Part shown: positions 2 through 24,069 of the stretch, in pieces | Numbering within the stretch: position 1 is the stretch's first letter | Layout of the letters: each line of letters begins with the position of its first letter | DNA from: an uncultured Ignavibacteriales bacterium | Lineage (GTDB): Bacteria; Zixibacteria; MSB-5A5; GN15; FEB-12 | Length of the DNA stretch: 64,000 bases | Direction: 5' to 3' | NCBI GenBank assembly: GCA_964464605.1 | Contig: CAYXJN010000005.1 | Location: 186,001-250,000, forward strand | Notes under the pieces: model-generated | The model's input: only the letters and a program-made list of their open reading frames with translations | Database searches by the model: none | What the model was told of the DNA's origin: nothing | Position numbers and translations under genes: made by a program

Positions 2-2485
2 GCTTCAGAAAGTTTTGCGTATACCGCCCGTGTTTATGATCCCTCGTTAGGAAAGCAGAATCTTTTCTTACTCGGTTTCGGTGAGCTGACATTCAACAGC
101 TTCTCTATCAAGGGAAGCCGTTCCGCCTTTGAACAAGGCAATACACTGTACTCAAATGAAATCGGTGGTACTACGTACGCGAACTATCGGGCTTCGATGT
201 TCGCCAACGGTAATGTTACGCCGAAGCTTTTCTTGAATGGTTCGGCGGTTGTTGATTCCCGAATCGATGATGAATACCGCACCGCGGATCCATCATTGTT
301 CCGTTTGCGGATGTCGTTAAACAGCACCGAACCGATTTGGGATGGCTGGCGCTTTACGGCGTATGGCACATATGATCCGAATCGTCAATGGGAGCTTGGC
401 AATCTCGACAGCCGTTTGTTAACCCAGCCGCAGAAACCGCTGCAGACAGAATTGTATGCGCGCTTGCAGTCGGAAAAGAATGGGTATGTCGAGGCTGGTT
501 CGCTTCACCCATCGTTCAGACAATCACAGTTTACGCTAAAAAACCGCGCCGTCTTTGGCGCTTTTGCTGATCTCAATACTGAACTGGTTGGTGTTGAGGC
601 AGTCGCCGGTAAACTGGAAGGGAAGCGGTTCCGCGAAGGTTCCGCGATCGGTATTCCCGCCGATGGTACCGCCGGACAGTATATGCTTTCCATTGTTCCG
701 GTTGTGCGCGGTAGTGAATCGGTCAAAATCGAAACCCGTGACCGGTTCAGTACCTCGACAGTTTTAGAAACGAAAATTCTTAAGCGGGATGTCGATTACT
801 CAATCGATTACGAACGGGGACGGATTATTCTGAATGAACCGGTACCCTCTTCTACACTCAGCGATGATCCCAACTTTATCGTGATTACCTACGGTTTTGA
901 GCGTGAGCAGAATGATGACATCCTCGGCGCTCGCGGTCGGGTAATGCCGACTGAGACAAGCCAGTTCGGCGCGACGCTGTTGCATCGCAATGTCGATGAC
1001 GGCGCAGCTTCACCGATTCTCGATCCGGATAATATTTTTGCGGCTGACGGTTCGTTCCGGACAGTCAACGGCCGTTTGAGCGGTTCCGGTGAAATAGCAG
1101 GATCTGAAATAGAAGCGACTGACAATACTCCCTCCGCCGTACGCGCTGATCTGACGGGCAAACCGACTGATGAGCTTACGCTGCGTGGAAATTTCTCACG
1201 CCTCGAAGATGATTTTCGTGCTTTCAATAACGGCGATTTGAATCCGATCAAGAATCAGCAGCGTCTCGATTTAGACGGCGATTATACGCTCGGCGCACGG
1301 CAGAATCTCAATGCCGGATTCAGTAATTATCGCGGACTTGAAGAAAACGGCGCGAACAATAGTTATCCGGGTCTGCGAAATGAAAATGTCTACCGCGCCG
1401 GATATCGCAATCGGTTCAATACCGGATTCAATTTGGGTGCGCGGCTCGAAGAACGCAAAGTATTCGACCGTTCCGATAACGACACCGAAGATAACGAGCA
1501 GTTCCGCGCGATTCTTGATTTAGATGGCTCCCGTGAACGGCTTGGATTCCTCGGCCGCTTCGGATATCAGTTCCATTACGAGTTTATCAATTTCTCTGAC
1601 CTTCTCAATGACGAGACGGATGAAAAATACGACAGCCGCACCAATCAAGCCGGTTTAAGCCTTGCTTCGACGCCGTGGAAGAGTACGACTGTTTCACTCG
1701 TACACAAATTATTACTGCGGGAAAACCGCGAACAAACTGCGTTTGATACCTACGACAATAGAGAAGATGAAACGTTCGGTTCAATTTTATTCAGACCGAA
1801 CAGTTTATTCTCCAGCGTTCTGACAGCACAGTACAAGCAGTGGACCGTTCCCGGTTCGAAAGTAGGTTTGTGGGAAGGGAATCCGTACCGCATTGAGCGA
1901 GTCGGAACATTGGCTGCCGAGTATTATCCCGAACGCTACGTCAAGCTTTGGGCTAAATTCGGTCATTATCAGCTTGAACAGTTGGCCATCGATAATAAAG
2001 GTGAATACACCAAGGATTATATTCAGGGGCAGGCGACCTGGTTTGCCACGCACCATCTTTCCGTAACTGCTGAAACTGAACTCTTTATCGTGCAGAATCG
2101 TCCGATGACCGCCAACGATGGTCGCACATGGGATCTGGGCGGCCGTCTGAATTGGAACCGTGACCGCTTTACGGAATTTACCGTCGGTGGTATTCGTCGC
2201 CTGGAAAAACTGAACGGTCAGGAAGGGGTGACCTATATCGTACTCGCCAGCGCGGCGGTGCGAATCTGGCGCGGATGGTTCGCCAGCGGCTCGATCAAAG
2301 AATTACTGCTTGATACCCCGATCAATGACGAGAAAAATTTCGAACGTCTTGAACTCGGCTATGAAAATCCGAAATGGTTCCGTGTTTCTGTCGGTTATGA
2401 ACGAATCGAAAGTGATCCGGAACCGCGCCCCGAAGATTATTACCGCGCACACGGACCGTTCATCAAACTGGTAGGGAAGATCTAA
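2..2485 (+). CDS. Outer-membrane beta-barrel-like protein (5' end outside window), probable partner of the downstream DUF11/OmpA protein
   Basis: Frame is open from base 2 (ASESFAYTARVYDP...), upstream of the track's Met at 197. Alternating aromatic/hydrophobic strands; GSESVKIETRDR...LKRDVDYSIDYERGRI motif; TAATG stop/start overlap with the next gene. Confidence 0.65.
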   Translation, partial: ASESFAYTARVYDPSLGKQNLFLLGFGELTFNSFSIKGSRSAFEQGNTLYSNEIGGTTYANYRASMFANGNVTPKLFLNGSAVVDSRIDDEYRTADPSLFRLRMSLNSTEPIWDGWRFTAYGTYDPNRQWELGNLDSRLLTQPQKPLQTELYARLQSEKNGYVEAGSLHPSFRQSQFTLKNRAVFGAFADLNTELVGVEAVAGKLEGKRFREGSAIGIPADGTAGQYMLSIVPVVRGSESVKIETRDRFSTSTVLETKILKRDVDYSIDYERGRIILNEPVPSSTLSDDPNFIVITYGFEREQNDDILGARGRVMPTETSQFGATLLHRNVDDGAASPILDPDNIFAADGSFRTVNGRLSGSGEIAGSEIEATDNTPSAVRADLTGKPTDELTLRGNFSRLEDDFRAFNNGDLNPIKNQQRLDLDGDYTLGARQNLNAGFSNYRGLEENGANNSYPGLRNENVYRAGYRNRFNTGFNLGARLEERKVFDRSDNDTEDNEQFRAILDLDGSRERLGFLGRFGYQFHYEFINFSDLLNDETDEKYDSRTNQAGLSLASTPWKSTTVSLVHKLLLRENREQTAFDTYDNREDETFGSILFRPNSLFSSVLTAQYKQWTVPGSKVGLWEGNPYRIERVGTLAAEYYPERYVKLWAKFGHYQLEQLAIDNKGEYTKDYIQGQATWFATHHLSVTAETELFIVQNRPMTANDGRTWDLGGRLNWNRDRFTEFTVGGIRRLEKLNGQEGVTYIVLASAAVRIWRGWFASGSIKELLLDTPINDEKNFERLELGYENPKWFRVSVGYERIESDPEPRPEDYYRAHGPFIKLVGKI

Positions 2486-5400
2486 TGAAACAGCAATCGA
2501 TCTTCTCCCGCATTCCCGCGATGTTCAGCGCTTTCGCACTGCTGTTTGCGGTGGCGTATCTGTTCATGCCGGTTACCTCTGTTGCCGGTGATGAAGTTCG
2601 CTTGTCTGATTACGCACAGGGCGGCGGTGGTCATGATGGTGGTCATACCTATCAGCCGATTATTCTGACTAAATCAGCTGATGTCGATACTATCTGCGCC
2701 GGTGATACGATTACCTACAAAATTCGCCTCCGTAATGCCTGCAATCAGACTATTTGCGATATCAAAGTTGTCGATGATCTCCCGCGCGGCGTTTCCTATA
2801 TCCCGGGAAGCGCGACCAACGGCGGGCAGTACAATTCCTACTCACGCACCCTTCGCTGGAAAATAGATAAAATCAAACCGGGTAAATATGTCGACCTGTA
2901 TTTCAAGGTTGTTTCTTCCCGCGACTACCAGTGCCCATCGATTATTATCAATAAAGCCTGTATCGATGACAGTCGTCACTGTGTGTGCGACTATGCCAAG
3001 GTAATCGTTATTCCGTGCGAAATTCCGGAAGCGCACATTGAATTAGACAAATCAGTTTCTACTGACAGCGCGACTGTCGGAGATACATTAGTATACACTA
3101 TTAATGTCGCCAACACCGGTGACGCCGTCGCTGATTCGGTAGTCGTGGTCGACATGATTCCTGCCTTCACGCAGTATCTTATCGGTTCCGCTACCGGAAA
3201 TGCTTCCTACAACGAAACACTCCGACAGCTTTCCTGGTTGATAACCGATCTTGCGCCGGGCGCGGAAACGAATGTTTCCTTCGCGGTTGTTGTAGATTCG
3301 ACTGCCACGATCGGAAGCGGCGTGGTGAACGTCGCGCACCTGGTCGTTCCGGATACCGGAACCTCCGACACGACTATTACGGTCGTCGTTCCGAAGAAAG
3401 ATCTCTCGATCGTTATGAGTGTAGACTCGACGGTCGCTTCTCCGGGTTCACCGCTTATCTATACGATGACTGTTACCAATAATTCCTCATCGACGCTTTC
3501 GATTACCAACCTGTTGGTAGTTGCGCCGATTCCGCTTTCGACCGGTTACATTGTCGGCAGCGCATCCGATGCCGGTATCTTCAACGTCGATTCCAACCGC
3601 GTTGAGTGGATAATCCCGTCCCTTGATTCCGGCCAGAGTATCGATCTCAGTTTCGGTGTCATCATCGACAGCGCAACGGCGATTGGTACGGAAATTATCG
3701 GCAACTCACACATTCTTACGCCGATTTTAGTCATCAGTAACGATGTTGTTACACTCGTGCAGGCGCCGGTGATTGATGAATCTTCCATCCGTATTCAAAA
3801 ATCAGTCGATAGAACAACAGCCCGCAGTCGTGACACACTGACCTATACGATAACGGTGTTCAATATCGATTCAGTAGCGGTTGATAACATCATCGTCGCT
3901 GATACGATATCGGAAGCAGTGGAGTATCTTGAAGGTTCAGCAACGCCGACCACTCCGTACAATCCTGCTGCTCGTACGCTGACCTGGAACTTGGCAACAT
4001 TGCCCGGTTATGACACCGCTATGTTCTCATTCCGCGTCGTTGTCGACAGCGGTTTACCGTCCGGTACGCAGCTTTCCAACGCGGCCTATGTTCTGTCGCC
4101 CGATACGATCCCGACTGACACAATTATTACGACTATCGTTCCGAAGGCGATTCTGAACATCGACAAATCAGTCGATCCGGTTCAGGCAACCGTCGATGAC
4201 ACCTTGACCTACACGATTACCGTTACCAACAGCGGCGATACCGCTGCCTTTGGTGTAACGATTGTCGATACTCTTCCGAATGCGACAACACTGGTTGATG
4301 GTTCAATCACTAACGGCGGCGTATACAACGAACTGACACAGGAAATTACCTGGCAGATTGCCCAGCTGAATGTCGGCAGTATTTTCGAGCTAACTTTCGC
4401 TGCCGCTATTGACAGCGGCACGCCGAGCGGCACCCAAATTCAAAATATCGCCTACCTTGTTTCGCCGGATACATCCACGACCGACACGACTATTACAACC
4501 GTTATTCCAAAGGCGAAGCTGAGTATCGATAAATCAGTCGACCCGACTCAGGCGATTGCTGGAGATACTCTTTCATACACTGTTACTGTTCGCAACACCG
4601 GTGATACCGCCGCGTTCGGCATATTGATTGTTGATACACTTCCGAATGCTACCACATTGGTGGAAGGCTCGATTACCAATGGCGGTGTGTATGATGCTCC
4701 GGCTCGCTTGATCAGTTGGAGTATTCCGACTCTCGGAGTTGGTGATTCATTACAGCTACTCTTCGACGCAACCGTCGACAGTCTGACTCCGGTCGGCACG
4801 TTGATTAGTAACGTTGCATACTTGGTAACGCCGGATACCAGCCATACTGATACTGTTATTACTGAAATTGTGCCGGATACGAGCAAGCACGCTATCCTTT
4901 CGATTGATAAAGCCGTCGATCCGACCCAGGCAACCGAAGGAGATACGCTTAACTACACGGTTACTATTCGTAACACTGGCGACACTGCCGCGTTCGGTCT
5001 GTTGATTATCGATACCCTTCCCAATGCTACCACACTCATAGACGGTTCAATTACCAACGGTGGTGTGTATGATGCCCCGACCCGTTTAATCAGCTGGAAT
5101 ATCCCAACGCTTGGCGCCGGTGATTCATTGCAATTACTGTTCGCCGCCACTGTCGACAGCCTGACACCGGTCGGAACGTTGATTGCCAATGTTGCCTATC
5201 TGTTGACTCCGGATACGAGCCATACCGATACCGTTATTACTGAAATTGTTCCGGATACGAGCAAGCACGCTATCCTTGCGATTGATAAATCAGTCGATCC
5301 GACCCAGGCCTCTACCGGTGACACACTCAGCTACACGATTTCTGTCAGTAATACCGGCGATACGGCGGCGTTCGGCGTGGTCGTGGTCGATACGGTTCCG

Positions 5401-8400
5401 CAGTCAACGCAGTTGATTACGGAAAGCATCACAGCCGGTGGTATTTTCAATCCGCTCTCACAGGAAATTAGCTGGACCATCCCGGTGGTTGGCATCGGCG
5501 CGACTGCCCCGCTGTCATTCGACGTGATTGTCGATCCGCTGATAGGAGACACCGGTCACATTTTCAACATCGCCTACATCGTCGTGCCGGATACGATTCC
5601 GACCGACACGACCATTACCACGATTGTTCCCGATACTGTCGGTCTGAATTTAGTGATTACGATGGCAGTGGATTCATCGCTCGCTTCTCCGAATTCGATT
5701 CTGACTTACACGGTAACGATTACGAATAACTCGGCTAATCAGCTGGTGGCAAAAAATATCTCTACAGTCATTCCGATTCCGGAATTGACAGCCTTCGTGC
5801 CGGGAAGTATCACCGGTGGCGGTCTGTTTGATGTCGAACTCAATCGGATAACCTGGCTTATTGACTCGCTAACGGTTGCGCTTGCTTCGGCAAGCTCCGC
5901 GCAGCTTACTTTCCAGGCGAATATCGCGCCGACTGCTATCGACGGTGACTCGATTATCGCCAACGCGACCATTCAATCACCGCAGCAGCGCACCAGTAAC
6001 AATGCTATCACGGTTGTTGGCATGAAAACCGTTTCGCCAGATGATTTCGCGATTGTCAAATCAGTTGACCGAACCCTTGCTTCCCCCGGTGACACATTGC
6101 ATTACCTGATAACGGTTGCCAATGTTTCTGACTCGACTATCGAAGATGTCGTGGTCGTTGACCAGATTCCTGCCGGAGCCGCGTATGTCGTCGGTTCTGC
6201 TACCAACGGAGGTACCTTCAGCGCCGGTAACAACTCGATTACCTGGGCTATCGGCACCTTGTTGCCGGGTGCAGTCGATACAGTCGCCTTCGCTGCCCGT
6301 ATTAATACCAATACGCTTACCGGGACAGTGGTCAGCAATCAGGCCTTTATCACAGAGCCGGTGTTAGTGCCGAGTAACATTACCAACACGACCGTCGCTG
6401 TTGGTGGTGAGTTTGTTATCTCGAAGGCAGCCGATCGCGCCGAAGTTACACCGGGCGATACCGTTACGTATACGATTTCATATCTCAACCAGGGTCCAGT
6501 GGTTCGCACCAATGTTGTCATAACCGATACATTGGCCGCATCGTTACAATATGTCTCTTCGACCAATGGCGGTGTCTATAACACGTTGCTTCGCTCGATT
6601 ACCTGGGCTATCGGCAACTTAGGTGCTGACGCCGCCGGTTCAGTACAGTTCCGCGCGATTGTCGGTAACGTGGCCAACGGAACACAGATCAGCAACGTTG
6701 CCTTAATCAACGGCACCAACCTGCCGCTGGATACAACTGCTCCGAGCATTATCACCGTTCGCTTCCCTGAATTGGAACTCACCAAGAGCGCCAATCCGGA
6801 AGTGGCTGCTCCGGGTGATACCGTTCTCTATCAGATCATTGCTCGCAACACCGGTTTGGGTGTGTTGAACTCCGCCTTTATCGATGACAATTTGCCGGAT
6901 GGATTCACCTATGTCGCAAATTCAGCCCGTCGTGATACGACCGCTGTTCCGGTTACCGGAACCGATCCGATTCGACTCACGATCGGCAACCTTGCACCGT
7001 CAGATACAGCAATTGTTACCTATCAAGTTGCTATTAGCACCTCAATAACAAGCGGCGCGGATTACACTAACTCAGCTATTCTGCGCGGTCTCAATATCTC
7101 CGGTGATACGGTAACTGTCGGTCCCGCTACCGCAAATGTCGCGGTCGGTGTGCCGAATCTGCGCGTCACCAAAACGACCAATACCAATTCAGCCCGCGTC
7201 GGTTCACTGGTACTCTACACCGTGACGGTTGAAAACAACTCCGACTTCCCGGCTGAAAATGTAACCGTGTTCGATCGTCTGCCGAATGGATTACTCTATG
7301 TCGAGGGCAGCAGTGTGCTGAACGGGGATAAGATTGCAGACCCGACTACAGGTAACCCGATTCAGTGGGTGCTCGGTACGCTTGAAGGAAATGAACAGTT
7401 TATATTGAACTATACGGTCGTTATCGGCCCCTCTGCCGGAACCGGCCGCACCAAGAACGTTGCCTGGGTTGAAACCGAAATCGGTAATACTCCGGAAAGA
7501 ACGAATGAGTCCGGCGTTGAAATTTTTGTTACCAGTGATCAGTTCCACGGATCAATTCGCGGTCGAGTGGTTGTCGATTGCGATGGTGACGGTGTTGCCG
7601 ATGTCGACACAGTCCCGGTCGGTGCGCGTATTTACCTCGATGACGGTCAGGTTTCGCAGGTCAATAAGGCCGGTATGTTCTACTTCAGCACCGTTCGTGC
7701 CGTTGACCATGTCGTTGCGCTCGATGAACGCAGCATGGTTGGGTTCCATACAGCGGAAGGTGAACAAGCTTCGGTCTTTGTCAAAGTTCACGAAATGGGT
7801 GAATCATATATTCTGTTCCGTGTCTGTCTGGATGGCCCGAATGTGTCACTCAAGAAGAAGGCAGCTGTCGTTCCGCAGGCAGAAATCCAAAAGACTGCCC
7901 GTATCAACCATGAACGGATTACCGATTCAGCCGGCGTGGTTATCGACTATGATCTGGCACTCGTTACAACCGGCGGCGCTGTCCCGACTCGCTTGCGTGT
8001 TGTCGATACTCTGCCGAAAGATACGCGCGCTATTCTGCGTGATTCCGCAGATGGCGTCAAATTAGAAAACGGCGTGCTGACATATGAAACATCGGTTGCC
8101 AATGACGCGGTTTCGAAATCAGTCTACTACTCACTTGAAGATTTAGCGCCCGGTTCACGCCGTACGCTGACAAATAATGCGCATGTCGAAGCGGATACCG
8201 ATCCTTCGGCAGCCGAATTCGCTCCTGACTTTGCATCACCTGCCGTGACGGTCTCGGTTGGGCCGTTCGGTATGACGCCGCCGCGTGATATTCAAATCAA
8301 CGTTGTCGGCGCTCAGTTTGAAACATCGAAGGCAAATCTGAAACCGGAAGCGGAAGCGGTGCTTCGCGCCATTGCCGATTCGATTCTGAAATATTCGGAT

Positions 8401-9105
8401 GCGCATGTTGTTATCGAAGGACACGCCGATATCCGCCCGATTCATACCAAAGAATTCCCGTCCAACTGGGAGCTTTCCACCGCCCGCGCAAAATCGGTCC
8501 GTGACTGGTTTGCCCGCAATGCCGATGTCGATACCGCGCGTATGAGCTACGAAGGTTTCGCGGCGACTCGCCCGGTGGATGCGCGCAGAAATCTGACTGC
8601 TTACGCTAAAAACCGCCGCGTCGAAGTATTCCTGAAAGCGAATATCGGTTCCCGGATCGATTTAACCGCCGTGAAAGATACTGTCTGGCGCTCCTCGGTT
8701 CCGCTCAGCTTGCAGCCGTCCGAATGGAGTGAAACGGAAATTCCGACTTCGGCACGTCCGGAAGGAATCTCCCGTTCGGTTTGGATGATTCAGATTACGA
8801 TCACGAATAATGGTCCCGGTATCGCAGAAGGATTACAATTGCTTGATACTCTCCCGACCGGTGTAACCCTTATGCCCGGCAGCGTGACCTTAGATGGAAT
8901 GGTGATTTCAGATGTACAGGTAATTGGCAAGCTCTTGTCTCTCTCTGTCGGTTCACTTGAAGAGGGAGAATCGACGGAATTGCGCTATGAAATCACGGCT
9001 ACTGCGGTTGAATCGATTGCCGGTGGCGGCTCCGCAACTATCCAACTGCGTGACAAGAGCCAGACTATCAAAACCTCGGTTTCCAACCCGGTACGGATCA
9101 AATAA
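2485..9105 (+). CDS. Giant secreted DUF11 (Ig-like) repeat protein with SdrD-B-like segment and OmpA/MotB-like peptidoglycan-binding domain
   Basis: Signal peptide; about 13-15 repeats of LxIxKSVD...GDTLTYTIxVxNxG...DTLP; DCDGDG segment; FETSKANL...IEGHADIRPI...SNWELSTARA...NRRVEV (about 8290-8640). Confidence 0.88.
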   Translation: MKQQSIFSRIPAMFSAFALLFAVAYLFMPVTSVAGDEVRLSDYAQGGGGHDGGHTYQPIILTKSADVDTICAGDTITYKIRLRNACNQTICDIKVVDDLPRGVSYIPGSATNGGQYNSYSRTLRWKIDKIKPGKYVDLYFKVVSSRDYQCPSIIINKACIDDSRHCVCDYAKVIVIPCEIPEAHIELDKSVSTDSATVGDTLVYTINVANTGDAVADSVVVVDMIPAFTQYLIGSATGNASYNETLRQLSWLITDLAPGAETNVSFAVVVDSTATIGSGVVNVAHLVVPDTGTSDTTITVVVPKKDLSIVMSVDSTVASPGSPLIYTMTVTNNSSSTLSITNLLVVAPIPLSTGYIVGSASDAGIFNVDSNRVEWIIPSLDSGQSIDLSFGVIIDSATAIGTEIIGNSHILTPILVISNDVVTLVQAPVIDESSIRIQKSVDRTTARSRDTLTYTITVFNIDSVAVDNIIVADTISEAVEYLEGSATPTTPYNPAARTLTWNLATLPGYDTAMFSFRVVVDSGLPSGTQLSNAAYVLSPDTIPTDTIITTIVPKAILNIDKSVDPVQATVDDTLTYTITVTNSGDTAAFGVTIVDTLPNATTLVDGSITNGGVYNELTQEITWQIAQLNVGSIFELTFAAAIDSGTPSGTQIQNIAYLVSPDTSTTDTTITTVIPKAKLSIDKSVDPTQAIAGDTLSYTVTVRNTGDTAAFGILIVDTLPNATTLVEGSITNGGVYDAPARLISWSIPTLGVGDSLQLLFDATVDSLTPVGTLISNVAYLVTPDTSHTDTVITEIVPDTSKHAILSIDKAVDPTQATEGDTLNYTVTIRNTGDTAAFGLLIIDTLPNATTLIDGSITNGGVYDAPTRLISWNIPTLGAGDSLQLLFAATVDSLTPVGTLIANVAYLLTPDTSHTDTVITEIVPDTSKHAILAIDKSVDPTQASTGDTLSYTISVSNTGDTAAFGVVVVDTVPQSTQLITESITAGGIFNPLSQEISWTIPVVGIGATAPLSFDVIVDPLIGDTGHIFNIAYIVVPDTIPTDTTITTIVPDTVGLNLVITMAVDSSLASPNSILTYTVTITNNSANQLVAKNISTVIPIPELTAFVPGSITGGGLFDVELNRITWLIDSLTVALASASSAQLTFQANIAPTAIDGDSIIANATIQSPQQRTSNNAITVVGMKTVSPDDFAIVKSVDRTLASPGDTLHYLITVANVSDSTIEDVVVVDQIPAGAAYVVGSATNGGTFSAGNNSITWAIGTLLPGAVDTVAFAARINTNTLTGTVVSNQAFITEPVLVPSNITNTTVAVGGEFVISKAADRAEVTPGDTVTYTISYLNQGPVVRTNVVITDTLAASLQYVSSTNGGVYNTLLRSITWAIGNLGADAAGSVQFRAIVGNVANGTQISNVALINGTNLPLDTTAPSIITVRFPELELTKSANPEVAAPGDTVLYQIIARNTGLGVLNSAFIDDNLPDGFTYVANSARRDTTAVPVTGTDPIRLTIGNLAPSDTAIVTYQVAISTSITSGADYTNSAILRGLNISGDTVTVGPATANVAVGVPNLRVTKTTNTNSARVGSLVLYTVTVENNSDFPAENVTVFDRLPNGLLYVEGSSVLNGDKIADPTTGNPIQWVLGTLEGNEQFILNYTVVIGPSAGTGRTKNVAWVETEIGNTPERTNESGVEIFVTSDQFHGSIRGRVVVDCDGDGVADVDTVPVGARIYLDDGQVSQVNKAGMFYFSTVRAVDHVVALDERSMVGFHTAEGEQASVFVKVHEMGESYILFRVCLDGPNVSLKKKAAVVPQAEIQKTARINHERITDSAGVVIDYDLALVTTGGAVPTRLRVVDTLPKDTRAILRDSADGVKLENGVLTYETSVANDAVSKSVYYSLEDLAPGSRRTLTNNAHVEADTDPSAAEFAPDFASPAVTVSVGPFGMTPPRDIQINVVGAQFETSKANLKPEAEAVLRAIADSILKYSDAHVVIEGHADIRPIHTKEFPSNWELSTARAKSVRDWFARNADVDTARMSYEGFAATRPVDARRNLTAYAKNRRVEVFLKANIGSRIDLTAVKDTVWRSSVPLSLQPSEWSETEIPTSARPEGISRSVWMIQITITNNGPGIAEGLQLLDTLPTGVTLMPGSVTLDGMVISDVQVIGKLLSLSVGSLEEGESTELRYEITATAVESIAGGGSATIQLRDKSQTIKTSVSNPVRIK
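4510..5320 (+). repeat. Near-identical 378-bp tandem duplication of DUF11 repeat units
   Basis: actgaaattgt(g/t)ccggatacgagcaagcacgctatcctt starts at 4861 and 5239 (period 378 nt = 126 aa); flanking sequence is also highly similar. Confidence 0.85.
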
Positions 9106-13266: not shown

Positions 13267-15183
13267 TTGTTTCGTAAAACAGACAATCATACTGAATATG
13301 CACATGCAAAATATCTTAAGGGTTGGCAATTACAACGTTTAGGCAATCTTGTTGATGCGAAGGATGTACTAACCGAAGCATATGCCGCATTTTTGCGTGC
13401 AGAAGATCTCAATGGTTGTGCGCTTTCTCTGCATCTGCAGGCGATTGTTTGCCACCACTTAGGTCAAGGTGACGTTGCCATTGAATATCAGTTGAACTCG
13501 ATTAACGTATATGGAAAAGCCGGGGATGAAATCAAGGCAAACCGCGGTTCAATGAGCCTTGCGCTTATTTTTTTCCGGTTAGGCAGGTTCAAAGAGGCAA
13601 GAAAGCAATATAAGATTGTAGAACAAAGCCTGTCTACACTTTCCAAACAAAACAAGATTAGTTACTACCTCGGTCATTCAGTTTTATCGATTTATTCGGG
13701 TGATACCGAACAGGCGGAAAAAGACTTCGCGTTTGTTAAGAAGAATATCGGAGATTTAAAACGAGAAGAAGCGATCTACTACGAATATCTCGGGTGGGCG
13801 AAGCTGCTTGAAAAAGATTACAAAGCTGCCGAAACCGCGCTTAACACCGGTCTGAAACTCTCACTCACTATGGGGGATTCGACAACGCTTATTTCGCAGA
13901 CGAAACGATTATTAGCTGATGTCTATGTTGCCACTAATCGGCATAAACTTGCCGAGCAAACCGCGCTTGAATCCTTGCAGGTGGCGGAAAAAATCGGTGA
14001 GCGGTTGGAAATCGCCGCATCATGGCGCGTGCTGGCGCAAACGGCAACCGTGTTAGGCAACAAACAGGAAGCGGTGGAGTATTTCCGAAAAGCAATAGAC
14101 CTGTTCAATCAGATAGGCTATCGATTTGAATTGGCATTAACCCGTTTTCTTGCCGCCCGTTCAGGATTGTATACAGAAGCGGAATCATCGGTGCTTTTGC
14201 ATATGGCAGAAGAATATTTTGCATCGGAGGAATTGACCGAGCATACCAAACTTATCGATCAGGCAGCAACCAAACTGATTCCGACTCCGAAAACCGAGTG
14301 TAAAGCAGGTGCGGCATCATCCTATGTTGTCCTTGCCGAAAGCAAGCGGATGAAAAAAGTCATGTCCTTAGTCGATAAAGCCGCGCCGACATCGTTCACG
14401 ATTTTGTTAACCGGTAAATCCGGAACCGGAAAAGACCTGATTGCCCGGTATATGCACGAACAAAGCGGCCGTACCGGTAATTTTGTTTCGTTTAATGCCG
14501 CCTCGGTACAGCCGACGCTTGCCGAATCCGTCCTTTTCGGAACGGTTAAGGGGGTGTTTACGGATGCCACCGACCGCCCCGGACTTTTTGAAGCGGCTGA
14601 CAAGGGGACGTTCTTTCTGAACGAAATCGGAAATGCCTCGCTTGAACTGCAGGCAAAACTGCTTGATGTACTTGAAACGCACAGTTTCTGTCGTGTAGGC
14701 GAGAATATCCCCCGCTCGGTGAATTTTCGGTTAATTGCCGCTACCAATGCTGATCTTGAAGCGATGATTCGTGCGAACACATTCCGCGCCGACTTGTACC
14801 ACCGTCTGCGGCAAGTGCCGGTGCATTTACCATCGCTTGATGAGCGTAAAGAGGATATCCCGGCGCTCATCGCAAGATTCTTTACTGAGCAAAACAGGAC
14901 AATGAGCGATTCTGAATTGATACAATTGTCTGCTGTCCTTTCGGAAAGACCTTGGCAGGGGAATATTCGTGAGTTACGGAGCGAACTCGATATTATCTGG
15001 ATCGCCTGCGCCGGTGATTTTGACCGGTTGCTCAAAGAAGCCGAGCGCCGGGTCAAAATTCAGCAGTATAAGCAAGCCGTCGAAGATGCCGACGGTAACT
15101 GTTCAAAAGCGGCTCGTTTGCTCGAAACCGATGAAAGTACGCTTCGCTATTGGATGAGCAAACAGGAAGTAGACACAAACTAA
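13267..15183 (+). CDS. TPR-repeat sigma54-interaction (AAA+) transcriptional regulator with C-terminal Fis-type HTH (true start probably 13064)
   Basis: TPR helices; Walker A GKSGTGKD; ESVLFG..KGVFTDA; FFLNEIG; RLIAATN; FRADLYHRL; WQGNIREL; GNCSKAARLL HTH. Confidence 0.9.
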   Translation: MFRKTDNHTEYAHAKYLKGWQLQRLGNLVDAKDVLTEAYAAFLRAEDLNGCALSLHLQAIVCHHLGQGDVAIEYQLNSINVYGKAGDEIKANRGSMSLALIFFRLGRFKEARKQYKIVEQSLSTLSKQNKISYYLGHSVLSIYSGDTEQAEKDFAFVKKNIGDLKREEAIYYEYLGWAKLLEKDYKAAETALNTGLKLSLTMGDSTTLISQTKRLLADVYVATNRHKLAEQTALESLQVAEKIGERLEIAASWRVLAQTATVLGNKQEAVEYFRKAIDLFNQIGYRFELALTRFLAARSGLYTEAESSVLLHMAEEYFASEELTEHTKLIDQAATKLIPTPKTECKAGAASSYVVLAESKRMKKVMSLVDKAAPTSFTILLTGKSGTGKDLIARYMHEQSGRTGNFVSFNAASVQPTLAESVLFGTVKGVFTDATDRPGLFEAADKGTFFLNEIGNASLELQAKLLDVLETHSFCRVGENIPRSVNFRLIAATNADLEAMIRANTFRADLYHRLRQVPVHLPSLDERKEDIPALIARFFTEQNRTMSDSELIQLSAVLSERPWQGNIRELRSELDIIWIACAGDFDRLLKEAERRVKIQQYKQAVEDADGNCSKAARLLETDESTLRYWMSKQEVDTN

Positions 15184-17494: not shown

Positions 17495-17582
<88 letters not shown>

Positions 17583-19772: not shown

Positions 19773-21047
19773 ATGAATAAAGAATCGAACAATTCGAACA
19801 CGATTCAGCAGCGCTGCTCCTTTTGCGGCAAAGGTGCCGGTCAGGTAAAACGCCTGTTTTCCGGACATCAGGCGTATGTCTGCAATGAGTGTGTCGAACT
19901 TTGTTCGGATCTATTGCACAACTCGCCCGATGTCGACCAGCCGCAGGAGATTCATGATCTCCCGGCGCCGACGGAAATAAAAGCGTTTCTTGATCAGTAT
20001 GTAATCGGACAAGAGACGACCAAAAAAATCGTCGCTGTTGCCGTTTACAATCACTACAAGCGAATCAACTCGCAGATTAAGAATGGTCCAATGGGACAGA
20101 ACAGCGACGATATCGAACTTGAAAAATCGAATATCCTCCTTATCGGCCCAACCGGTACCGGTAAAACATTGATTGCCCGTTCACTGGCCAAGTTTCTGCA
20201 CGTTCCGTTTTGTATTGCTGATGCAACTGTATTAACCGAAGCCGGATACGTCGGTGAGGATGTCGAGAACATTCTGGTTCGTTTGTATCAGGCTTCGAAC
20301 TTCAATCAGCATAAAACTGAGCGCGGGATTATTTATATCGATGAAATCGATAAAATCTCCCGCAAGGATGGTAATCCATCCATCACCCGTGACGTTTCCG
20401 GCGAAGGTGTTCAACAGGGATTGTTGAAGATTCTTGAAGGAACTATCGCCAATATCCCGCCGAAGGGTGGACGTAAACATCCGGAGCAGGCGTTCGTCCA
20501 GATTAACACGAGCAATATCCTGTTTATCTGCGGCGGGGCATTTGACGGCCTTGAAAGAATCGTCGCTCGCCGGGTAGGGAAGAAGACAGTTGGATTCGAT
20601 GCTAACGCGGTCCATGTCGATCATCGCCAGCATGACATTTTAGAAAAAGCGACTCCTTCGGACCTTATCGAATATGGACTTATTCCTGAATTAGTTGGCC
20701 GCTTGCCGGTTACCGCTGCGCTGCATGCGCTGGATGAATCGGCACTCATGAATATTCTCACCGAACCGAAAAATGCGCTGGTGAAGCAGTATATAAAGAT
20801 GCTCCATATGGAAGGTGTTGTGCTTCGTTTTGAACCGGAAGCGCTTCGCGCGACGGTAAAAATCGCCATGGAACGCCGTACCGGTGCCCGCGCATTGCGC
20901 TCGATTTTAGAGAAAGCGATGCTTGAGATTATGTACGAAATCCCCTCTGCAGATAATATCGCTGAAGTTATTATCACGGCTGATACGATTACAAATGGCG
21001 TCCGCCCACGAGTCATCACCCCCGCCGAGAAGAAAAAAGCCGGGTGA
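19773..21047 (+). CDS. clpX: Clp protease ATP-binding subunit ClpX
   Basis: CSFC...CNEC zinc finger; [29 protein letters not shown] loop. Confidence 0.98.
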
Positions 21048-21093: not shown

Positions 21094-21972
21094 ATGTCTC
21101 GTGTCTTTATTCAAATTAAACAACACGCTGGAAATTACTACATTCGAACTGATAGTTTCGGCTTTGATTGGTTGAACAGAGTCGAAGAGCAGCTCGCGAA
21201 TATCGATAAAAAAGACTTAAAGTTAGATTTTTCAAATGTTACTTGGTTTGATGCAAATCTTTGTGCACCTCTTGCGGCTATTTTAAGGAGGCATGTTGAA
21301 GGTAAAGTGAAGATAGAGGTGGGGTCCATAAAAGTAAAAGCTATACTTCAAAAAAACGGATTTCTTCAAGACAAGATTTCTGACGATTGGGGCTCTACAA
21401 TTCAATATAAAAGGTTTTTTGCAAATGAGTTTGATAGTTTTCTCGAATATATTAATCTTCAATTTGCGAAGCGTGTATGGCCTAATACCCCGGATAAAGT
21501 GAGAAAAGGGTTTAGAGTGTGTTTAGGCGAGCTTTTTTCCAATGCATCTGATCATGCAAAAATAGGCAAAGATATTTTCACCTGTGGACAGTTTTATCCT
21601 CGAAAGCATATACTGGAATTCACCATAGCCGATAATGGGGTTGGTATTAGATCAAATGTAGTAGAATTTCTTGGACGAGATATTTCCGCACTTGAAGCAG
21701 TAGAATGGGCGATGAGTGGAATGAATACTACGCGAAAAGGAGATATACCGGGAGGGCTTGGTCTTAAGATATTGAAAGAGTTCGTTATCGCTCAAGATGG
21801 AAGGCTTACAATAGTATCAGGTGAAGCCTATTGCGAGGTTAGTCATTCTGGTCAAATCTTAGTAAAGCTATCACGACCATTTCCAGGAACAGCCGTCAGT
21901 ATTAAATTGAAAACGGATGGTAAGAATTGTATCTTGACAGCACCAGTCGAACATGACGATTTTGCATTCTAA
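21094..21972 (+). CDS. STAS-like + GHKL (HATPase_c) ATP-binding protein, anti-sigma-kinase-like
   Basis: N-terminal [11 protein letters not shown]-box [10 protein letters not shown]1 IADNGVGI; G2 GGLGL; G3 FPGT; no HisKA H-box; AT-rich. Confidence 0.8.
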
Positions 21973-21991
21973 TCGAAAGAGAGTTTAGGGT

Positions 21992-22315
21992 ATGCCGGAG
22001 CTTTATAAGATTAAAATACATCAGATTGTATCTTCCAATCATTGTATTTCATCATACGATGGTCAGAAAGTTTATGATAAAATTAACGAACAATTACATT
22101 TGGGGCAAATAATTGAGCTTGATTTTGAATCAATTGAAGATATGACCTCCGCTTTTCTTAACGCAGCTATTGGTCAGCTTTATGGTAAATTTCCGAATGA
22201 GTTTCTGAATAAACATTTACATGTTAAAGAGGGCACAATAGACAGAGATGATTTATTGCTTTTGAAAAGAGTGATTGATAGGGCAAAAGAATTTTTTGCT
22301 GCCAAAAAGCAGTAA
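21992..22315 (+). CDS. STAS-like DUF4325 protein
   Basis: DGQKVY..I....IELDFESIEDMTSAFLNAAIGQLY pattern, 107 aa. Confidence 0.8.
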   Translation: MPELYKIKIHQIVSSNHCISSYDGQKVYDKINEQLHLGQIIELDFESIEDMTSAFLNAAIGQLYGKFPNEFLNKHLHVKEGTIDRDDLLLLKRVIDRAKEFFAAKKQ

Positions 22316-22342
22316 CTATTTTTTACTGCTGAGGGAAACATC

Positions 22343-22888
22343 ATGGTATATGACATTGGGGATTACGTTTTCAAGCCGAATGACAAATTTGTTGTCGATA
22401 CTAATATCTGGATGTATCTCTACTATCAATATTTTGGAGATCAGAATAAAGAAGCTATATACTCTGATGCCATTAGTCGCATTCGAGGCGGTGGTTGTCA
22501 TTTATTTATAACTTTGCATGGCGTAACCGAATATGTGTCAGCTTACATCGGTAAGGATTTAGAAAACAAACCTGACCGTCTAAAAAATTTCACATATAAA
22601 ATGATTCGTAAGGACAGTTATTTTAAGAATAGCGCAGAAGCAGCAACTACAACTGCAAGAATGATCCTCAAATATACTAATTTAATAGCTCAAGAGTGTG
22701 CATTAACTGAATTGTCTCCCTTGCTAGAAGAGTTTAGTGCGGGTGGATTAGACATGAATGACCAATTGCTTCTTCAATTTGCGCGAAAACTTGGATTAAA
22801 AATAGTCACTGAAGACTCTGACTTTCTTTCATCATCGACTTCGATTGATATTCTTACCGCGAATCAAAAAATGTTAGAATTAGCTTAA
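22343..22888 (+). CDS. PIN-domain ribonuclease
   Basis: FVVDTNIW, conserved E, DMND, IVTEDSDF acidic active-site residues. Confidence 0.85.
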   Translation: MVYDIGDYVFKPNDKFVVDTNIWMYLYYQYFGDQNKEAIYSDAISRIRGGGCHLFITLHGVTEYVSAYIGKDLENKPDRLKNFTYKMIRKDSYFKNSAEAATTTARMILKYTNLIAQECALTELSPLLEEFSAGGLDMNDQLLLQFARKLGLKIVTEDSDFLSSSTSIDILTANQKMLELA

Positions 22889-22893
22889 TCTTC

Positions 22894-24069
22894 TCACCCC
22901 TTAATATTCAAAATCGGTCGTAACTTCGTGGTGATAGTCACTAGGTCCGTTTGTTGGGACATGACATCGTCGATGTTTTTGTATGCATCCGGAGCTTCGT
23001 CCAGAAATTTACCGCTTACGGATTCGGAGAAAATCCCTTCCATCTGGCTGCGGAATTTTTCAAGCGGGATACTTTTTTTCGCCTGATGGCGCGACATTCT
23101 TCGCCCCGCTCCATGTGAACAGGAGTTAAATGAATCCTCGTTATCTTTCCCTTGCACAATATAGGATGGATCGGCCATGGAACCGGGGATAATACCGGTA
23201 ATATCGGTTTTTACCCGCGTTGCACCTTTGCGGTGTACCCAGACGTTTTTACCGAAATGTTTTTCTTGCGCAGCATAGTTGTGATGGATATTGATAATCG
23301 GATCGAACTGTACGGATGAAATCTGCGAACGGATAGCATCCTTGATACACTCCATCATCACAAAGCGGTTCTGCCGCGCAAACTCCATCGCAAAATTCAT
23401 GTCGTCGATATATTCTTCACCCTCAGGTGATAATTCATCCAATGCATCCAATTGCGAAGGGAGATTCCAATTTTTCTGCTGGGTGACTCGTCTTGCTGCT
23501 TTCATGTGCCGTTCGGCTAACTCCTTGCCGATGTTCCGTGAACCGGAGTGAAGCATTATCCAGACAGTGTTGTTTTCATCCGCCTGCAATTCGATAAAAT
23601 GATTGCCGCCGCCCAGCGTCCCTAATTGTGGCGCGGTGGCTTTGCCACCTTTTTTGTCATAGTCAGGCAATTGTGCCAAGAGCGCATTGTCGGCGTATTC
23701 ATGAACCAGAGCCAATTGTCCTTTTGGGCGGTGGCTGAATCCCATTGGAATATCCCGAACAATTTGGTCATGGATTTTCTTTAATACCGGTGTGATTTCA
23801 GCGATGTTCAAGTCAGATTTCACCGAGCACATTCCGCAGCCGATATCAACCCCGACGGCCGAGGGGATAAGCGCTCCCTCGCAGGGCAAAACCGAGCCGA
23901 TTGTCGCCCCGATTCCGGAATGGACATCCGGCATAATGGCTACCCATTTATGCAAAAAAGGGAGAGTCATCATGTTCTCGATCTGTTGCATGGCGGAGGT
24001 TTCTACGCTATCCGGCGGCAGCCATAATTTGGCTTTTACTGTGCCCGATTTGTCGCTGATTTCATACAT
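22894..24069 (-). CDS. rtcB: RtcB RNA 3'-phosphate/5'-OH ligase
   Basis: MPDVH, GVDIGCGM, GTLGGGNHFIE, HSGSR, HRKGAT, SHGAGR, DEAPDAYK. Confidence 0.96.
   Translation of the reverse strand: MYEISDKSGTVKAKLWLPPDSVETSAMQQIENMMTLPFLHKWVAIMPDVHSGIGATIGSVLPCEGALIPSAVGVDIGCGMCSVKSDLNIAEITPVLKKIHDQIVRDIPMGFSHRPKGQLALVHEYADNALLAQLPDYDKKGGKATAPQLGTLGGGNHFIELQADENNTVWIMLHSGSRNIGKELAERHMKAARRVTQQKNWNLPSQLDALDELSPEGEEYIDDMNFAMEFARQNRFVMMECIKDAIRSQISSVQFDPIINIHHNYAAQEKHFGKNVWVHRKGATRVKTDITGIIPGSMADPSYIVQGKDNEDSFNSCSHGAGRRMSRHQAKKSIPLEKFRSQMEGIFSESVSGKFLDEAPDAYKNIDDVMSQQTDLVTITTKLRPILNIKG

Follow-up and report, generated by a model that had tools for sequence, protein, structure and literature searches.

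In the SpoIIAB–SpoIIAA and RsbW–RsbV partner switches, the sigma factor that the switch controls is encoded in the same operon, usually along with a phosphatase. A different use of a kinase and a STAS protein, the VapKSC system, was described by Chambers et al. (EMBO J 2026; PMC13373217), with a crystal structure deposited as PDB entry 9Z7O. According to the accessible portion of that paper, the Escherichia VapC is toxic, loses its toxicity upon the D28A substitution and is neutralized by VapS, with which it forms the 2:2 complex seen in 9Z7O; neutralization is lost when VapS carries S48E or lacks residues 94–116. The Escherichia operon gives ≈2-log protection against phage Bas42, for which D28, S48 and VapK F54 are needed, and the same source remarks that VapKSC may shield from phage via a global DNA-damage response, with protection against "at least one" phage. 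Activation of VapK by single-stranded DNA (ssDNA) was deduced there from prediction and from CapK, for which ssDNA activation has been shown biochemically; phosphorylation of VapS by VapK was likewise a deduction, VapK being insoluble, and so was the RNA target. A coupling of the PIN.4 cluster to DUF4325 genes had already been noted by Matelska et al. in 2017 (PMC5499597, accessible portion). Literature searches on vapKSC and on VapS and VapK with antitoxin returned only Chambers et al. and its preprint on this system, and no discussion of short-tailed VapS proteins was found in the accessible portion of PMC13373217.

The locus described here lies in a stretch of DNA of 64,000 nt, hereafter called the window, and comprises three plus-strand genes: vapK-like gene 1 (21094..21972, 292 aa), vapS-like gene 2 (21992..22315, 107 aa) and vapC-like gene 3 (22343..22888, 181 aa). 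The gaps between them are 19 nt and 27 nt, the latter being the spacer 22316..22342. The cassette begins 46 nt 3' of clpX (19773..21047, plus strand), the host gene that closes the tig–clpP–clpX cluster, and ends 5 nt before the stop codon of the convergent rtcB gene (22894..24069, minus strand), which has a host-like GC content and lies outside the cassette. Three closely spaced genes between clpX and rtcB are what a first-pass annotation, made from the DNA letters alone, had reported, and the coordinates agree; the domains it had read are also found by Pfam, with matches to HATPase_c (gene 1, E = 8e-7), the STAS-like DUF4325 (gene 2, E = 4e-19) and PIN (gene 3, E = 2e-6).

When the flanks of the cassette were scanned for direct repeats and att-like sites, none were found that mark its ends, and promoter-like sites occurred at chance level (7 seen, 6.7 expected). 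A terminator at the vapS stop was considered but is not supported: positions 22296–22315 resemble a terminator hairpin, but there were 2 such sites against 2.0 expected, and the fold obtained for the region (z = −1.1) is another hairpin, in which the U run is taken up. PADLOC analysis of 18 flanking proteins gave generic AAA matches only, and the defence-island setting that the first-pass annotation had suggested looking for thus did not appear at this site. Only 36% of VapKSC members have such a context (PMC13373217, accessible portion). Elsewhere in the window are a protein of 2206 aa that contains many DUF11 repeats and, close to its C-terminus, an OmpA domain (2485–9105), a 638-aa TPR–sigma54 activator-like fusion (13267–15183) and, upstream of tig, a tRNA-Leu gene (17496–17580).

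Comparison with the published system leaves us nearly certain, on sequence grounds, that the triad is a homolog of VapKSC. The top PDB match of gene 2 is the Escherichia VapS (9Z7O_A, E = 5e-10; 4.5e-24 with the family profile), and that of gene 3 is the VapC of the same entry (9Z7O_C, E = 3e-6; 9e-15 with the family profile), with D19 aligned to D28. Ser53, in the MTSAF motif of gene 2, aligns with the Escherichia VapS phospho-site S48, which bears out the earlier reading of gene 2 as a lone STAS-like domain with Ser at the phosphorylated position; the column holds S or T in 78/78 relatives of one set and in 78/80 of another. Gene order, domain content and protein sizes are those of VapKSC, the kinase has the STAS–GHKL architecture without an HTH, and it has the kinase Asn (N150) as well as an aromatic (W51) and basic residues (R170/K171) at the predicted ssDNA-binding positions. 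Genes 1, 2 and 3 are 37–40, 35–47 and 24–30% identical, respectively, to the triads of D. gobiensis I-0 (L002) and DeMMO2_3 (L039), gene 1 being 37% identical to the L002 VapK and 40% to that of L039; these two loci were assumed, from the genome names listed there, to be operons of Dataset EV3 of Chambers et al. The first-pass annotation had proposed that a kinase–STAS–PIN module gates an RNase for phage defence. By homology this is the same model as VapKSC (PMC13373217, accessible portion) and to that extent it stands, but the idea of a kinase-gated RNase had already been named and published in 2026 and is not new.

The triad is widely conserved, as the annotation had asked to be checked. Of 337 genome loci, the top 80 include 72 with the order kinase–STAS–PIN; in seven of the remaining eight the contig stops too early, and one is permuted, with vapS–vapC upstream of vapK (L048:467–2463). 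In the top 80 out of 560 STAS loci from metagenomes, a PIN gene directly follows the STAS gene in 64 of the 65 with room for one, and a kinase precedes it in 47 of 49. The hosts span many phyla and include one archaeon, one plasmid and viral contigs. In single-protein scans of viral contigs, gene 1 found 0 loci and gene 2 found one orphan STAS locus. PADLOC-DB 2023 and NCBIfam contain no model of the triad; they yield only a weak match to DrmA, on the GHKL portion, and one to VapC that falls below the cutoff. One full triad lies beside an integrase in Streptococcus phage Javan172 (L003:5001–6793), where the phage record does not label the PIN ORF (6263–6793) as a PIN gene. Two loci have unusually long VapK-containing ORFs, one of 946 aa with a weak AAA_22 match near its N-terminus (E = 7e-4) and a short PIN ORF (L084:45–2885), the other of 709 aa with no Pfam match (L045:5723–7852); they may represent genuine fusions, or genes lying upstream may read through into them.

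Two further systems share parts of this design. CapK–CapS also pairs a STAS–GHKL kinase with a STAS substrate that has a conserved Ser, but CapK carries an HTH at its N-terminus, and the C-terminal wHTH of CapS acts as a transcriptional repressor. The cassette proteins lack both domains: gene 1 opens with STAS and gene 2 is STAS only, at 107 aa compared to 184 aa for CapS. With VapBC and the PIN.4 cluster, the cassette shares the VapC-type PIN fold of gene 3. Unlike in VapBC, the gene upstream of vapC encodes a DUF4325/STAS protein rather than a small DNA-binding VapB, and release would proceed via phosphorylation and not proteolysis.

What distinguishes the window copy is the C-terminus of VapS. 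Its F101 corresponds to Escherichia F94 and its residues F101–Q107 to 94–100, so that the inhibitory region 94–116, 23 residues long in Escherichia, is reduced to 7; this region reaches the active site of VapC and is required for inhibition in the Escherichia member, and most of it is lacking. Six residues follow F101 in the window, compared to at least 16 in 161 of 166 relatives (82/86 and 79/80 in the two sets), and the tail is the shortest of all 167 sequences. Because most of this inhibitory tail is missing, we regard the triad, from its sequence, as a VapKSC variant and not as a standard member. The VapS tail of relatives mostly forms an amphipathic helix with an acidic end, and its gene usually overlaps the start of vapC, by 7–19 nt in 60/77 triads; the window has the 27-nt spacer instead. 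No reading frame of this spacer encodes a family-like tail. The short tail is therefore not the product of one recent mutation, and an origin by a single nonsense or frameshift change was rejected. Nor is it, or the cassette sequence as a whole, an assembly error. Exact copies of window proteins 1, 2 and 3 are present on 12, 15 and 11 contigs, respectively, and eight sequencing runs contain every sampled word and were flagged as possible sources, with no RNA run listed among those carrying the sequence; a 1709-nt contig from run X11, which is outside those eight, spans positions 21841–23549 without differences.

The next-shortest tails belong to L004 (10 aa) and L125 (11 aa), neither of which has a detectable VapC, while three near-identical viral triads (L088–L090) have a VapS tail of 12 residues. 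L004 is from Burkholderia phage vB_E188, in which the kinase–STAS pair (4638–5845) lies beside an integrase and near a BrnTA pair; a PIN gene was not detected there. The L125 gene (2255–2815) is an orphan VapS-like STAS gene in a sugar-kinase-like cluster, with neither a kinase nor a PIN neighbour. A further orphan of this kind, also without kinase or PIN neighbour, is found on a viral contig (L001:5001–5363), following an ORF that was assigned as RNase H-like by reading its sequence.

The PIN acidic residues that had been noted in gene 3 at the outset (D19, E63, D137, D140, D158 and D160) are all present. Seven columns that are invariant in VapC (D19, Y40, E63, K86, D137, D140 and D158) are kept in a protein that is at most 34% identical to any relative, which argues for selection on nuclease function; R89 is kept as well. 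A Foldseek search with the gene 3 model returned a VapC-type PIN fold and other VapC/PIN structures, and 9Z7O was not among the matches listed (library to April 2026). Of 23 highly conserved columns, the window VapC deviates from the family at 5, and none of the 74 other aligned sequences deviates at as many. Among these changes, T62, S66 and G70 replace a family S, N and R on the helix that bears E63; the family residues occur in 72, 73 and 69 of 74 relatives, respectively, and in 60, 57 and 59 of the 62 in a second set.

These features define the main rival to a working switch, namely, that the cassette is an attenuated or decaying VapKSC in which VapC was weakened first and the VapS tail then eroded, leaving no toxin output. 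Such a history would fit the shortest tail of 167, with other short tails occurring mainly where VapC is missing, as well as the loss of strongly conserved residues at VapC positions 62, 66 and 70. It would also fit the tree of VapK (37 of the 89 kinase-bearing loci used), in which the terminal branch of the window protein measures 1.88 against a median of 0.43. This long branch has an unsettled placement, so that no donor can be named; the window VapK departs from the family at 20 of 83 conserved columns, and no relative exceeds 43% identity among the 120 listed. However, the cassette has accumulated no stops or frameshifts over 1.8 kb despite a 55–70% amino-acid divergence from its nearest relatives, and the catalytic acids, K86, R89 and the kinase boxes described below have all been kept. 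The toxic Escherichia VapC is also without the family N and R, having H and S at these positions, which makes S66 and G70 hard to read as inactivating, and the viral triads L088–L090 manage with a 12-residue tail. For these reasons, we consider decay unlikely, while treating it as the explanation to be taken most seriously besides a working switch.

The composition of the DNA points to a foreign origin of the cassette. Its GC content is 0.364, whereas the genome as a whole has 0.488, and only 1 of 5576 genome segments of 1795 nt is equally low; third-position GC is 0.28–0.31 in the cassette genes and 0.51–0.56 in the six flanking genes tested. The AT-richness relative to the flanks that the annotation had pointed out is thus borne out, as is its description of the cassette as inserted: genome G114, of the same family, has the order clpX, an unrelated 183-aa ORF, rtcB, CMD and DUF4846, with no cassette. 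The cassette is single-copy in its own genome, and the kinase profile at E ≤ 1e-15 matched 0/107 genomes of the same family. At the clpX loci of nine relatives, other genes lie downstream or the locus ends early, and no cassette gene was matched. The slot after clpX is variable, and the cassette was horizontally acquired. In four runs with thin coverage, three of which had low word shares, no joint across the cassette, as an empty site would give, was seen. The neighbouring rtcB gene was considered as a partner of the cassette, for repair or otherwise, and rejected: 84 related loci (L007–L090) contained no match to rtcB, and G114 carries rtcB at the same position without the cassette. In the family, rtcB is patchy, occurring in 5/60 genomes at E ≤ 1e-30, and it adjoins the CMD–DUF4846 genes in G114 and G111.

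The same location bears on a second alternative, that VapKSC works in this organism but mainly as a DNA-damage-triggered system for growth arrest or persistence, with phage protection secondary. The cassette sits directly behind the tig–clpP–clpX housekeeping cluster, on the same strand and without defence neighbours, and the remarks on a global DNA-damage response and on "at least one" phage in the accessible portion of PMC13373217 point in the same direction. Against this, the foreign composition, the absence from all 107 genomes of the same family and the occurrence of relatives on a plasmid and on viral contigs are what one would expect of defence genes carried as mobile cargo. The mechanism would be the same, so that the difference is one of emphasis, and we find this alternative improbable.

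The kinase was analyzed with a profile of 61 sequences, in which the window protein is joined by 60 relatives out of the 119 listed. The N-terminal part of this profile matches the STAS anti-sigma antagonist TM1442 (positions 23–87, E = 0.0026), and the C-terminal part matches ATP-binding domains of histidine kinases, indicating a pseudo-STAS domain at residues ≈15–90 followed by a SpoIIAB-like GHKL kinase domain at ≈100–277. The predicted structure (pLDDT 87) opens with strands and the STAS helix. It is closest to SpoIIAB (Z 10.8, rmsd 3.0, 136 residues aligned), followed by RsbW (Z 8.5); a Foldseek search returned generic GHKL ATPases only, and NCBIfam gave only weak histidine-kinase matches (E ≥ 0.03). 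No HisKA phosphoacceptor domain was found in the cassette genes by Pfam at E ≤ 1, in agreement with the first description of gene 1 as having STAS-like and HATPase boxes and no histidine box. The kinase boxes E146, N150, D180-x-G182-x-G184 and G220-G221-x-G223 are present, and E146, N150, H154, D180, G182, G220, G221 and G223 are invariant in 82/82 relatives and kept in the window. At the phospho-Ser position of the pseudo-STAS domain, 76/82 relatives have Ala and the others Gly; the window has Ala. The kinase's own STAS domain is therefore not a substrate. Residues W51, N150 and R170/K171 were mapped by eye to F54, N160 and K180/K181 of the Escherichia VapK with Appendix Table S2, in which the VapK sequence runs 5 residues behind the numbering of the paper at these positions. 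The W51 column holds W in 78/82 relatives and F in 3/82, and W51 and R170/K171 occupy predicted ssDNA-binding positions, as far as the residues themselves go.

The likeness to SpoIIAB and RsbW, in the GHKL Ser kinase fold and the STAS substrate, is also the basis of the partner-switch reading given by the first-pass annotation. The kinase–STAS relationship in that reading is supported by homology; what changes is the role of the STAS protein, which in VapKSC is itself the antitoxin on the PIN dimer, released by the kinase, so that the substrate and not the kinase holds the output protein. The window kinase also differs in having its own pseudo-STAS domain. That the locus instead combines an unrelated PIN gene with a classical sigma-factor switch or a two-component histidine kinase, as the SpoIIAB/RsbW likeness (Z 10.8 and 8.5) and the weak NCBIfam matches might suggest, is very improbable and was rejected, since there is no HisKA domain, the scan of flanking genes revealed neither a sigma factor nor a phosphatase or response regulator, a PIN gene travels with the pair in 72/80 and 64/65 loci, and the VapS–VapC complex of a homolog has been solved (9Z7O).

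We thus favour the reading that the window copy works as a VapKSC-type toxin–antitoxin switch, with a probability of roughly 60%; all three of its ORFs are intact. Its activity we infer from that of the Escherichia member. At rest, the STAS domain of unphosphorylated VapS would sit on the VapC dimer, burying S53 at the contact surface and keeping the RNase off. Upon phage replication or DNA repair, ssDNA would bind in the groove between the pseudo-STAS and GHKL domains of VapK, contacting W51, R170 and K171, and activate the kinase. Activated VapK would then phosphorylate S53 and cause VapS to dissociate, and the freed VapC would cut tRNA or rRNA, resulting in arrest of the cell, i.e., abortive infection. 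A point against a working switch is that residues 1–100 of the window VapS correspond to the Escherichia tail-deletion mutant, which fails to neutralize VapC.

If the switch does work, VapC would be restrained by binding of the STAS domain together with the 7-residue VapS stub; this VapC would have co-diverged beside the active site (T62/S66/G70), with no translational overlap between its gene and vapS. Restraint of a co-diverged VapC by the STAS body and stub is what we infer for the window copy. More tentatively, it might represent a naturally tail-less VapKSC, in which an active PIN toxin is held almost solely by a phosphorylatable STAS domain. Equally tentative is the evolutionary route to it: the blocking helix would have disappeared from VapS, and the S-E-x-x-N-x-x-x-R helix near the VapC active site would have changed.

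The interest of the window copy is that its antitoxin nearly reproduces a loss-of-function mutant while its toxin looks intact, which makes the cassette a natural test of how VapS blocks VapC. Its VapK is a further candidate for demonstrating the steps of ssDNA activation and phosphorylation that could not be shown in the published work. If the tail-less reading is true, the cassette would be the natural counterpart of the Escherichia tail-deletion mutant, which is unable to neutralize its toxin, and would reveal a second mode of VapC inhibition in the family, either allosteric or by occlusion through the STAS body.
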